64,000 nucleotides of DNA from an uncultured Nitrospina sp. GTDB lineage: Bacteria; Nitrospinota; Nitrospinia; Nitrospinales; VA-1. The stretch spans positions 7,014 to 71,013 of the forward strand of contig CAYFNV010000003.1 in the NCBI GenBank assembly GCA_964344595.1, read 5' to 3'. Position numbers and translations under genes: made by a program. Each line of letters opens with the position of its first letter. The first letter of the stretch is position 1. The notes under the pieces are model-generated. The model saw nothing but the letters and a program-made list of their open reading frames with translations. It ran no database searches and was not told the DNA's origin. Positions 41,507 to 47,136 of the stretch are shown here, piece by piece.

Positions 41507-41583
41507 GGGCCGTTAGCTCAATTAGGCAGAGCAACTGACTCTTAATCAGTAGGTTGAAGGTTCGATTCCTTCACGGCTCACCA
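41507..41583 (+). tRNA. tRNA-Lys (anticodon CUU), CCA encoded
   Basis: Hand-folded cloverleaf. Acceptor GGGCCGT/ACGGCTC, D stem GCTC/GAGC, anticodon stem ACTGA/TCAGT with loop CTCTTAA, T arm GAAGG-TTCGATT-CCTTC, then discriminator A and CCA. Confidence 0.9.
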
Positions 41584-41592
41584 TTTACTTTC

Positions 41593-41624
41593 AAAGGGTT
41601 ACAGCGATTTTGTTGTAACCCTTT
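41593..41624 (+). terminator. Hairpin directly after tRNA-Lys
   Basis: AAAGGGTTACA-N10-TGTAACCCTTT with a weak T-tract. Confidence 0.5.
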
Positions 41625-41949
41625 GTTCATGCATCCTGCCAAATGTCTGCCATATTTTTTGAAATAATCAGGGTTATTCCATTTATCATAAAATATTTCT
41701 AAATGTTTTTTACCAATTATAATCTCCTCTAACTTAAATAAATAAAAGGTTTTAGCAAATTCATAACCAAATAAAATTCTTTCAATTTCGCTTCTGATAA
41801 AAGAAGATTTAAAGCTTTGCTGATATAAAATCAGCAGGTTATAGGTTCGAATTTTTGTATTGTTTTTGAAAACCATGAATCTTAAAATTTATCAATTGCC
41901 ATAAAGGAGTTTAATTTTTCAATGTAATCTTTTTCACTTTCAATACTTA

Positions 41950-43449
41950 ATGCAAATAACTCCGTCAAAAATCTCTCTAGTATGTTGTATTTCCACAATT
42001 GCTCTTGGAAATATGGTGCTCATTGGATGGATAATAAACTCCCCGGTCTTAATTCAAATCTTTACTGATTACGTTCCCATGCAATTCAACACGGCCATAG
42101 GATTTATTTTGGCCGGAGCCGGTTTGTATTTTGTCAATTTCTCAAAGGTCTATAAGGCTAATGTTGCAGGATTAGCAATTTTGTTCATTAGTTGTTTAAC
42201 ATTATTTGAATATACTTTTGATGTGGACCTTGGTATCGATCAGCTTTTTTTCCAACACTACATTACTGTAGAAACCTCTCACCCTGGGAGAATGGCTCCC
42301 AATACAGCAATTTGTTTTATTCTTGTGAGTCTGACCCTGTTTCTAACAACTAGAGGGAAATATTTTAATAGAACAGTTTTATTTTCTGGAATATCCGGAG
42401 GTATCATTTCTGCCTTATCCATTGTGGCGGTGATAGGATATCTCGTTGATTTGGAGTCTGCCTATGGATGGGGACAGTTTACTCGGATGGCCTTCCATAC
42501 CGCGATGGGTTTTGTCATTCTTGGGGTCGGGATCATCGCCTTTTCGTGGAAAAATGAACCTGTAAAAATTATTGGCTCTCCTAATTGGCTTCCGGCTTTG
42601 GTGTGTGTTGGAGATATTATTTTAACTGTATTTTTATCTCAGGCTTTTGAATCAACTGATCAGCATTCGCTTTCGACCATCGTTTTAAATTCGGGGATTT
42701 TATCAGCGATATTTTGGCCCCTATTAATTTATTTCTATCAAAGATATAGAGACCTATTCCAAAAAATAGAGAACTACGATAATTACCTTGCAGCAGAAAT
42801 TTCCAAACGTGAACAAGCTCTGGAGAGAGAAGCCCAATCCATAAAAAACCAAGAAAAAGCCAGTTTAGCGCGCGACATTCATGATGAATTAGGGCAATTT
42901 CTGACTATTATTAAATTGGGTTTAATACGGTTTAATGACGGAATGTCTAAGGAAAATGATTCCAACAATTCTCAAATTAAGTCATTGATAAAAGTTGTAG
43001 ATAAAACTATAAAATCTGTTCAAAGAATTGCAACCAATCTTCGTCCTCAATCACTAGATACCTTGGAGCTATATGATGTTCTTTTATTACATAGCAAAGA
43101 ATTTCAAAAACAAACGGGAGTAAAATGTGAAATTTTTTGTTCCTCAGAACGAATACAGATAAATAAAATCTTGGCAAGTGACATATTTCGTGTCTACCAA
43201 GAGGCTTTAACCAATGTTGCACGGCATGCAAAAGCAAGTATCATTAAGGTCACTTTTACCCATGACAAAAACTTTCTGATTTTAAAAGTCCGGGATAATG
43301 GGAAAGGAATTAAATCCCACAACATTCGAAGTTCAAAATCTATTGGTTTGGAAGGGATTTATGAAAGGGTAAACAAATGGGGAGGTGAATTAAACATCAT
43401 AGGGGCCCCTGGAGAAGGGACATCAGTAGAAGTAAAGATTCCTTTTTAA
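41950..43449 (+). CDS. Sensor histidine kinase, HisKA_3 (NarX/DegS-type) with polytopic N-terminal sensor region
   Basis: About 7 TM helices. H-box ARDIHDELGQ, N-box ALTNVARHAKA, G1 DNGKGI, G2 GLEGIYERV..GG. Confidence 0.85.
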   Translation: MQITPSKISLVCCISTIALGNMVLIGWIINSPVLIQIFTDYVPMQFNTAIGFILAGAGLYFVNFSKVYKANVAGLAILFISCLTLFEYTFDVDLGIDQLFFQHYITVETSHPGRMAPNTAICFILVSLTLFLTTRGKYFNRTVLFSGISGGIISALSIVAVIGYLVDLESAYGWGQFTRMAFHTAMGFVILGVGIIAFSWKNEPVKIIGSPNWLPALVCVGDIILTVFLSQAFESTDQHSLSTIVLNSGILSAIFWPLLIYFYQRYRDLFQKIENYDNYLAAEISKREQALEREAQSIKNQEKASLARDIHDELGQFLTIIKLGLIRFNDGMSKENDSNNSQIKSLIKVVDKTIKSVQRIATNLRPQSLDTLELYDVLLLHSKEFQKQTGVKCEIFCSSERIQINKILASDIFRVYQEALTNVARHAKASIIKVTFTHDKNFLILKVRDNGKGIKSHNIRSSKSIGLEGIYERVNKWGGELNIIGAPGEGTSVEVKIPF

Positions 43450-43466
43450 TTAAGTTGCTCACAGCA

Positions 43467-44132
43467 ATGAATAAAAAAATAAATGTTTTAATCGCCGATG
43501 ATCATGCTGTTGTTCGTGAGGGAATGAGGTATATTCTTTCTAAAACTCAGAATATTGTATTAGTTGGTGAAGCCGGGAATGGAAATGAAGTTTTAGATCT
43601 TATCCGATCCATAGATAGTTTAGATGTGCTTTTATTGGATTTGGATATGCCCGAAAAAGATGGGTTGGATGTCTTGTTAGAGGTAAAAATAGAATATCCA
43701 GAATTACCAGTAATTGTAATGAGTGTATATTCTGAAGAACATTATGGGCTCCGCTTAATTAAGGCAGGTGCATCGGGTTTTTTGGCCAAAGATAGTGCTC
43801 CGGACCAACTTGTAGAAGCTATAAAAAAAGTTTCTGCTGGGGGAAAGTTTATCAGTTCTAATCTTGCGGAAAAAATTGTTCAGCACTGGGAACGTGACTT
43901 AGAAATACCTCTTCATCAAAATTTATCTAATCGGGAGTTTCAAATTTTTTGTATGATCGCCTCTGGGGAATCCCCAAAAAATATTTCAGAAAAACTATCC
44001 ATAAGCATGGCCACTGTCAGCACTCATCGGAACCATATCCTCAAAAAATTAGATTTAAAAAATAACGCTGAACTTACCCTCTATGCCTCTAAAGAAGGTT
44101 TGATATCCAAATCAATAAACCCCTCCCACTGA
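43467..44132 (+). CDS. NarL/FixJ-family response regulator (REC + LuxR HTH)
   Basis: VLIADDHAVVREG, LLLDLDMPEKDG, and LSNREFQIFCMIASGESPKNISEKLSISMATVSTHR. Confidence 0.9.
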   Translation: MNKKINVLIADDHAVVREGMRYILSKTQNIVLVGEAGNGNEVLDLIRSIDSLDVLLLDLDMPEKDGLDVLLEVKIEYPELPVIVMSVYSEEHYGLRLIKAGASGFLAKDSAPDQLVEAIKKVSAGGKFISSNLAEKIVQHWERDLEIPLHQNLSNREFQIFCMIASGESPKNISEKLSISMATVSTHRNHILKKLDLKNNAELTLYASKEGLISKSINPSH

Positions 44133-44318
44133 TTGTATTTCGTTATCCTTTTCATTAACTTGAAAAGACACGCCTTTTTTATCGAAATAATTTGATGAAA
44201 AAATCCTAATATTTTGACCCTTAATTTACGAGTTTGTCTAATTTCTTTAATTGTGCTTTGGGAATATATTAATGACTCCTTTGAAATCCTTTTACAAAAA
44301 TTTATAAGGAGGTTAGGA

Positions 44319-46051: not shown

Positions 46052-46227
46052 ATAGGATTTTTCTATTTATCTAGCTAATTAATGTTCGATCAGTAGGTTT
46101 TCAGGGGGATTAATACGGTTACTAACTGTTATATGATTAGTTGGTAGGAATTGTAAAAAACGGGTGGGAAGATTTTGTGCTTTTTACCAACTGGTTTCGA
46201 ATGCCAGTTCGGTACTTTTTTGACTTC

Positions 46228-46536
46228 TTATGCGTTAACCTTATCCATCGACTTGATTTTGAGTGGTGGCACGGGTCGATGACCCCTGAGGCTGTGCCAT
46301 AAATCCCAGTCGCGTTGCAGGTTCAGCCAGAATTCTGGTCCAGTCCTTAAAGCTTCGCCCAAAGCCAAGGCCGAGTCAGGGGTAATTCCCCTTTTTTCAT
46401 TGATGATTTCGTTTAAGCGCGCGTAAGGCCAGTGCAGGTGTCGCGCCAGCTCCGTTTGGGTTATCCCGCCGGGTTCCAGAAATTCCTTCAACAGCATTTC
46501 CCCCGGATGCGTCGGGGGACGGTTTTTGGGTAACAT
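46228..46536 (-). CDS. higA: HigA-type antitoxin (Xre HTH)
   Basis: ATG 46536 is preceded by AGGAGGA. HPGEMLLKEFLEPGGITQTELARHLHWPYARLNEIINEKRGITPDSALAL is the HigA/VapI pattern. Confidence 0.85.
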   Translation of the reverse strand: MLPKNRPPTHPGEMLLKEFLEPGGITQTELARHLHWPYARLNEIINEKRGITPDSALALGEALRTGPEFWLNLQRDWDLWHSLRGHRPVPPLKIKSMDKVNA

Positions 46537-46547
46537 GTTTTTTCCTC

Positions 46548-46838
46548 CTAATGGTAATCGGTCACATCCACGTCGTGGGCATCGTTTTCTTTCCAGCGGA
46601 AGATTATCCGCCACTGGTCGTTGATCCTCAGGCTCCAGAATCCTTTCAAATTTCCTCCCAGTTTTTGAAGCTGGTTGCCTGGGGGTATCCTCAGGACATC
46701 CGGTGAGGGCGAGGCGTTGATCTGGTCCAGCAACCGCCTGGTTTTGCCATGCAATTCCTTGGGGAGCCTGCGGGCATGTTTGCTGTTGGTGCCGTCATAT
46801 ATATCCTGGGCGGTTTTGCTTTTAAAGCCTGTTATCAT
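46548..46838 (-). CDS. higB: HigB-type toxin (RelE/ParE superfamily, plasmid-maintenance killer)
   Basis: GNQLQKLGGNLKGFWSLRINDQWRIIFRW...DVDVTDYH. The toxin-first order is typical of higBA. Confidence 0.85.
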   Translation of the reverse strand: MITGFKSKTAQDIYDGTNSKHARRLPKELHGKTRRLLDQINASPSPDVLRIPPGNQLQKLGGNLKGFWSLRINDQWRIIFRWKENDAHDVDVTDYH

Positions 46839-47043
46839 ATATAATAGTATATCAGATATCGATATAATTACAAGACCGGTTCAAATTTGAGGTGTCTATG
46901 ACAGATTTATGACAGAACATAACCCCACAGGCAGAATCTATGGCATTAATGAAATCAGTGGAAAGGTTTGGAAGTGTCTGAAAGCTAAGCGAAAAGAGGA
47001 GCCGACCAGAACTCAACAACTGCCATAAATTATTAATTTTTTG

Positions 47044-47088
47044 CTCTTAATCAGTAGGTTGAAGGTTCGATTCCTTCACGGCTCACCA
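47044..47088 (+). repeat. Exact copy of the 3' 45 nt of tRNA-Lys (att-like)
   Basis: Identical to 41539-41583 (CTCTTAATCAGTAGGTTGAAGGTTCGATTCCTTCACGGCTCACCA). Confidence 0.9.
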
Positions 47089-47095
47089 TTATTTT

Positions 47096-47136
47096 TCAAG
47101 GGGTTGCGAGAACTCGTAATCCCTTGAATTTTTTTT
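47096..47136 (+). terminator. Hairpin plus T8 after the tRNA fragment
   Basis: CAAGGGGTTGCGAG-AA-CTCGTAATCCCTTG followed by AATTTTTTTT. Confidence 0.6.

Follow-up and report, generated by a model that had tools for sequence, protein, structure and literature searches.

Probable relics of three integrative elements in tandem at a tRNA-Lys(CUU) gene of an uncultured Nitrospina

What is the origin of the DNA behind the tRNA-Lys(CUU) gene in a 64,000-nucleotide stretch from an uncultured Nitrospina sp. (assembly GCA_964344595.1, contig CAYFNV010000003.1, positions 7,014 to 71,013)? We call the whole of this stretch the window and use its own positions throughout. Nitrospinota are abundant, poorly cultivated marine nitrite oxidisers. 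The 3' part of the tRNA gene recurs twice downstream, and the copies bound two short segments, islets A and B, which a preliminary description of the sequence had taken for two stacked island remnants that had lost their integrase, or for small elements mobilised in trans. Our analysis indicates that the locus is probably made up of three decayed site-specific integrative elements in tandem, inserted at a hotspot in the anticodon loop of tRNA-Lys(CUU). The stacking of islets thus stands and the count of two does not, since an integrase stub behind the last repeat raises the number of members to at least three.

Repeats, integrase stub and element ends

The window contains a single tRNA gene, an intact tRNA-Lys(CTT) at 41507-41583 (ARAGORN and Rfam, 71 bits), with a promoter-like TTGCCA-17-TAAAAT (41451-41479) upstream of it. 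The preliminary description's two direct copies of its 3' 45 nt were confirmed at the coordinates given there; a 40-nt core of the tRNA 3' part matches the window at three places, 41544, 45190 (one mismatch) and 47049, and had no match in 100 shuffles. All three copies have the same orientation and run from the first anticodon-loop base (2 nt before the CTT) to the CCA. Copies 1 and 3 are identical, and their identity extends 2 nt further to give 47 nt in all; copy 2 has two changes, an inserted A in the anticodon-loop segment (CTCTTAA[A]TC) and a C>A substitution in the T-stem (CCTTCAC>CCTTAAC). A strong hairpin lies 6-12 nt 3' of each copy (-20 to -22 kcal/mol, z about -5 to -8), with a clear T-run behind those of copies 2 and 3. 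The repeats and the other features that define the ends of the elements (attL and attR are the left and right attachment sites) are as follows:

41507..41583, + strand: intact tRNA-Lys(CUU); its 3' 45 nt (41539-41583) are copy 1, the attL core of islet A
41592..41625, + strand: terminator hairpin after copy 1 (-21.4 kcal/mol, z -8.3)
41636 / 41647, + strand: left-arm doublet CTGCCA of A, 11-nt phase, span 41636..41652; candidate P' arm-type integrase sites
45039 / 45050, + strand: right-arm doublet CTGCCAA of A, span 45039..45056, beginning 145 nt before copy 2; candidate P arm sites
45184..45229, + strand: copy 2 of the tRNA 3' part, 46 nt; attR core of A and attL core of B
45242..45271, + strand: terminator hairpin after copy 2 (-20.4 kcal/mol)
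45401 / 45412, + strand: left-arm doublet TATGACA of B, 11-nt phase, span 45401..45418
46897 / 46908, + strand: right-arm doublet TATGACA of B, span 46897..46914, starting 147 nt upstream of copy 3
47044..47088, + strand: copy 3 of the tRNA 3' part, exact; attR core of B and attL core of the third element, nearly all of which is deleted
47089..47157: stub of the third element (C), 67 nt left, with terminator hairpin (47095-47128), TGTGCG doublet and integrase tail
47136 / 47147: TGTGCG doublet of the C stub, left arm; the right arm is deleted
47158..47929: scar region between the stub and a conserved DabA-Mrp cluster

The absence of an integrase gene from A and B, reported in the preliminary description, was borne out for the whole window, in which none was found by tblastn with two integrases or by a search of all six frames with a profile hidden Markov model (HMM) built from 122 integrases (hmmsearch --max; best E 0.65). 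Behind copy 3, the minus strand of 47099-47155 corresponds to the last 20 codons of a tyrosine integrase of the type found at locus L138 of a related Nitrospinota (SRTKSAQK-KFKGLRVLATP and stop, against SSTKSAQSPKKKRLRLLATP and stop in L138). The local alignment of 47089-47157 with L138 scores 37, against 9.0 +/- 1.6 for shuffles (maximum 16), and the DNA after copies 1 and 2 scores only 10 and 12 in the same alignment. The homology stops near 47157, and the stub represents the C-terminal tail beyond the catalytic domain, so that the Phage_integrase domain with its R..HxxR..Y residues is missing from it. Because 47089-47157 is homologous to the end of the L138 integrase gene, copy 3 forms the left end of a third element, nearly all of which has been deleted, and the idea of remnants that have lost their integrase gains direct support from this stub.

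Both islets also carry, near each of their two ends, a pair of identical short motifs, CTGCCA(A) in A and TATGACA in B. A matched doublet on both arms was seen in none of 20,000 shuffled arm pairs and in none of 267 real control pairs. The TGTGC doublet of the C stub is conserved beside the integrase genes of three other loci (L138, L187 and L194), and of 23 partial copies elsewhere in the metagenomes (loci L092-L181) 22 have a doublet with a period of 10-12 nt on the upstream side of the 45-mer, at a distance of 100-155 nt. These doublets are best read as putative arm-type integrase sites, and, judging from the loci compared, upstream doublets are a general arm-site layout of elements that use this attachment site. 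Since the doublets match on both sides, A and B keep complete attL and attR, with the caveat that copy 2, which supplies one core to each, has two changes. Most of the doublets elsewhere lie near -125, and their motif is specific to the element. Among viral contigs the TATGACA doublet pattern had one match, which is the chance level.

One further candidate repeat, a degenerate copy at 45115-45142, was rejected as marginal (score 18, against a background of up to 17); this stretch (CCATTATTTTTGAAGCGTTTCCGAAAAC) is identical at 23 of 28 positions to the end of copy 3 and its terminator, and it may be a trace of another att end in the right arm of A. No fourth copy of the native type, with the T-arm of the relatives, was found further downstream within 16 mismatches of 45.

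The same site in relatives and in other genomes

A scan with the peroxiredoxin encoded nearby assigned the organism to Nitrospinota. The DNA to the left of the array, SDR-transglutaminase-peroxiredoxin-orf92-tRNA-Lys, is common in whole or in part to loci L008 (a complete Nitrospinales chromosome), L009, L014, L134 and L138/L179, and what follows the tRNA gene is a NERD-UvrD helicase and pentapeptide proteins in L008, unrelated genes in L014, an IS3 transposase in L134, and in L138/L179 an island with a tyrosine integrase gene at its start (the L009 contig stops about 250 nt past the tRNA, too early to show what lies downstream). None of this downstream DNA matches the window and none of these relatives carries A or B at the site, so A and B are lineage-specific; and because the DNA after the tRNA differs in each relative in which it is visible, the site is a hypervariable hotspot.

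The island of L138/L179 (Ga0209992_10000718, from a related Nitrospinota) is the most informative of these, being like the window in its left flank, tRNA-Lys site and 45-mer. Its left end is intact, with an integrase of 377 amino acids (PF00589, E 1.6e-15) whose gene ends 9 nt after the tRNA and is followed by ThiF-domain, HerA-domain and other uncharacterised genes. Window positions 47089-47157 show homology to this island in its terminator, TGTGC doublet and integrase C-terminus, and of this left end the window keeps 67 nt. The tRNA of L138/L179 is a chimera, in which the 5' strand of the anticodon stem (AATGA) is that of L009 and the 3' strand is TCAGT (TCATT in L009); the A.G mismatch that results at positions 28-42 shows that the 3' part of this tRNA came from the island. 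The close relatives of the L138 integrase, P0123 and P0124, come from other samples and lie beside tRNA-Thr and not tRNA-Lys. Close relatives with 70-77% identity to the L138 integrase stand next to tRNA-Thr(CGU) genes (L194, 5566-5696; L187, 11119-11241). In the flanking tRNA of L194 the anticodon stem and variable region are shared, and the differences lie in the loop and T-arm. This pattern suggests that the target may have switched between tRNA-Lys(CUU) and tRNA-Thr(CGU) within one integrase clade.

The T-arm of the window's own tRNA-Lys (41553-41576, GGTTGAAGGTTCGATTCCTTCAC) differs at eight positions, which form compensatory pairs, from the T-arm in representatives of three Nitrospinota species (L008, L009 and L014; GGTCCTCGGTTCGATCCCGAGAC), and it is identical to the form that is widespread in other phyla and on mobile elements. 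In some lineages of Nitrospinota, DNA of an element may have taken the place of the 3' half of tRNA-Lys.

The exact 45-mer occurs at 95 metagenome loci with a G+C content (GC) of 0.38-0.71, mostly as the 3' part of an ordinary tRNA-Lys(CUU) gene. About 25 partial copies are present among these loci, most of which start at the same anticodon-loop base as those in the window. Integrase genes recognised by the family HMM abut the 45-mer in at least nine loci (L138, L179, L130, L144, L173, L094, L148, L111 and L099), usually with their 3' end facing the 3' end of the tRNA, and on a viral contig a partial copy with the same boundary lies beside a P4-type integrase gene (Arm-DNA-bind_3/Phage_int_M/Phage_integrase). 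With the foreign composition of A (below), the variable relatives, the L138/L179 island and the matched doublets, this shared boundary beside integrases upholds the earlier interpretation of the repeats as the footprint of an integrase. A second instance of A or B beside the 45-mer was not found among the 95 loci. One contig from an unrelated organism, ERZ1370068 contig-1190 (L146 and L099, GC about 0.70), has at least three partial copies of the 45-mer, two of them 1.4 kb apart, and only a 93-amino-acid integrase fragment after one of them; it looks like a similar integrase-poor tandem array.

Contents of the islets and their right edge

The genes of the islets and of the DNA immediately to their right are listed here:

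41571..41876, - strand: orf101, without a family match, in the position that integrase genes occupy in intact elements at the site
41950..43449, + strand: HisKA_3/HATPase_c sensor kinase with multiple transmembrane segments, cargo of islet A
43455..44132, + strand: NarL/FixJ-type response regulator (Response_reg and GerE)
44319..44825, + strand: protein of 168 amino acids with a signal-peptide-like N-terminus, third gene of the kinase-regulator-small-protein module
45680..46051, + strand: protein-kinase N-lobe fragment (Pkinase positions 1-90 of 263)
46228..46838, - strand: higBA, toxin first, intact (HigB 46548-46838, HigA 46228-46536)
47347..47817, - strand: stand-alone GGDEF open reading frame, N-terminally truncated, 156 amino acids, lacking the first ~23 domain positions and a sensor domain

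Family matches agree with the gene content that the preliminary description gave for A (kinase, regulator and secreted protein) and for B (kinase fragment and higBA). Segment A is compositionally foreign. Its GC of 0.353 lies below that of the other 3.6-kb tiles of the window (0.370-0.46, mean 0.420, sd 0.017), and its tetranucleotide distance of 0.279, against 0.168 +/- 0.022 elsewhere, is about 5 sd above them, so that in the compositional check which the preliminary description had proposed A stands out from all other tiles. The kinase-regulator-small-protein module of A (41950-44825) recurs in three loci (L184, L185 and L186) in contexts without a tRNA gene, with identities of 45-48% for the kinase, 54-58% for the regulator and 70-83% for the small protein. 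This last protein (about 166 amino acids, with no family assignment) is thus far more conserved than the kinase. We rejected these loci as a parent element for A, since the module in them is just 45-83% identical and does not lie near tRNA genes; among the metagenome loci and relatives compared, a homologous parent was found neither for A nor for B. The candidacy of orf101 as an integrase remnant was likewise dropped, as it has no similarity to integrases.

Islet B is a mosaic in GC, its left kilobase having 0.32 and the higBA region 0.52. The best NCBIfam match of its kinase fragment is a weak one, to the MADS6 defence kinase. The higBA pair has the organisation of a type II toxin-antitoxin system, a HigB/RelE-fold toxin gene upstream of a helix-turn-helix HigA antitoxin gene with both at full length (PF05015 positions 3-91 of 91, E 1.8e-19; TIGR02607 95 bits against a cut-off of 47.7), and it plausibly stabilises islet B.

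At its right edge the array meets core genes in a scar, the product of a deletion or rearrangement. The truncated GGDEF open reading frame within the scar is probably what remained of a gene after the deletion from which the scar arose. To the right of the scar, the NuoM-like gene of the DabA-Mrp cluster is 84-94% identical across Nitrospinota, and in the relatives it has other neighbours and no tRNA-Lys; the cluster is therefore core backbone, and we rejected the possibility that it is cargo of the third element.

Origin of the array and its meaning

In the history that we favour, a tyrosine integrase would have brought in each element by recombining its attP with the tRNA gene. The attP would have brought the stretch of tRNA from anticodon loop to CCA together with its own terminator, and integration would have rebuilt a working tRNA and displaced the earlier 3' part downstream. 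Repetition of this process would give the order tRNA, A, copy 2, B, copy 3 and the stub of C. Internal deletions would later have removed the integrase genes, and what survives is, in A and B, both ends (the 45-nt core and an element-specific doublet in each arm) and the cargo, and, of C, 67 nt (terminator, arm doublet and the last 20 integrase codons) that abut the deletion scar.

Some observations weigh against this history. Copy 3 is exact and copy 2 has two changes, although in serial insertion copy 3 would have been displaced for longest, and the order of insertions that we infer is uncertain for this reason. Inside A and B themselves no remnant of an integrase was found, and the loss of an integrase from these is argued by analogy with C. 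Among the relatives compared none has an empty site, each having different DNA after the tRNA. In addition, the junction of the tRNA, copy 1 and A is supported by the window's own assembly and by no independent contig. This last point, and the origin of the genome as a metagenome assembly in which short-k contigs break in the repeat, as would be expected, raise the question of a mis-join through the 45-47-nt repeat that brought in islets from elsewhere or from another strain. The other junctions argue otherwise. A Logan contig (L183) carries A, copy 2 and B contiguously from repeat to repeat, a megahit contig from ENA (L006) spans B, copy 3 and the right flank at 100% identity, and in four runs islets and flanks have equal word depth (among public runs the locus is present in only four low-depth Logan contig sets, with k=31 and about 4x depth). 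We regard an assembly artefact as very unlikely. A similar-looking terminator stands behind each copy, as it would in a duplicated gene unit, and in principle the copies could be the product of local duplication, or of decay of former tandem tRNA-Lys genes, with no site-specific recombination. However, the copies have no trace of the 5' half of the tRNA, they all begin at the anticodon-loop base used by integrase-linked copies elsewhere, the DNA between them is foreign in composition, arm-type doublets lie at positions typical of attR sites, and an integrase stub stands behind copy 3; such an origin is extremely improbable.

A different matter is whether the islets still move. In the account given in PMC5704250, cis-mobilisable elements (CIMEs) lack integration and transfer genes and keep attL and attR (Pavlovic 2004; Bellanger 2011), and tandems of a CIME with an integrative and conjugative element (ICE) are known to be co-mobilised. 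A and B could be functional CIMEs, moved in cis or in trans by a cognate integrase whose gene lies at another place in the genome or on an incoming element. On each side they do retain a core and a matched arm doublet, and L138-type integrases that use the site circulate in related Nitrospinota; moreover, copies 1 and 3 share the same 47 nt, and A and B together could be excised through them as one 5.5-kb unit. On the other side stand the lack of an integrase in 64 kb, the extra base of copy 2 in the anticodon-loop segment, where strand exchange is expected, and the absence of a second A or B beside the 45-mer at the 95 metagenome loci. Furthermore, A, B and the C stub have three different arm motifs, so that a single integrase is unlikely to serve all of them. 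Two joints in the Logan contigs that resemble an empty site and a circle, 41538>47044 (X1) and 47043>41539 (X3), were rejected as evidence of excision. The 47-nt repeat is longer than k=31 and all of their words are also present in the integrated form, so these joints are artefacts and uninformative; in the runs that have X1 and X3 the competing branches were simply uncovered, and X2 breaks normally. That the islets remain mobile is in our opinion unlikely. It is decidedly doubtful that A and B are, more specifically, a live integrase-less hitch-hiker, stabilised by higBA and moved whenever an element with a compatible integrase enters the hotspot. If this were true, marine Nitrospinota would swap small cargo cassettes (here a two-component system) by a CIME-type route. 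To our knowledge such a route has not yet been described outside Firmicutes and Actinobacteria.

The decayed tandem array that we favour has known counterparts. Its islets are now non-autonomous and CIME-like, and they are most likely fixed relics. They resemble the ICESt1/ICESt3-related CIMEs of Streptococcus thermophilus, which, as described in PMC5704250, lie in tandem at the 3' end of a target gene through successive site-specific integrations. They differ from these in their marine Nitrospinota host, in their target (the anticodon loop of tRNA-Lys(CUU)) and in that no resident ICE or integrase is visible; derivation from a larger element by decay is seen for the third member in its stub, and for A and B, for which no parent homologue was found, that derivation is presumed and mobilisation putative. 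The array also resembles the islands in Islander, which lists 125 cases of two or more islands in tandem (PMC4383910). Like these it has an intact, regenerated tRNA, displaced direct 3' fragments and a crossover in the anticodon loop, a sublocation for which anticodon-centred attP sites form class 'A' (Williams 2002, as cited in PMC4383910). Islander needs an integrase gene in every island of an array (PMC4383910), and here none of the three members has one, a 20-codon stub after copy 3 being all that is left; pipelines of that type would therefore not report this array.

Decay of islets that leaves the recombination ends behind is an ordinary outcome of a known kind; what is new here is the third member and the arm doublets. 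Island finders that depend on an integrase miss such arrays, and matched doublets in 11-nt phase, about 100-155 nt upstream of a displaced tRNA fragment, provide a usable signature of a genuine attR where no integrase is present. The array is chiefly of value for annotation: it identifies tRNA-Lys(CUU) as a variable hotspot of integration in Nitrospinota, and it explains how an AT-rich two-component system and a toxin-antitoxin pair come to lie beside core carbon-uptake genes.

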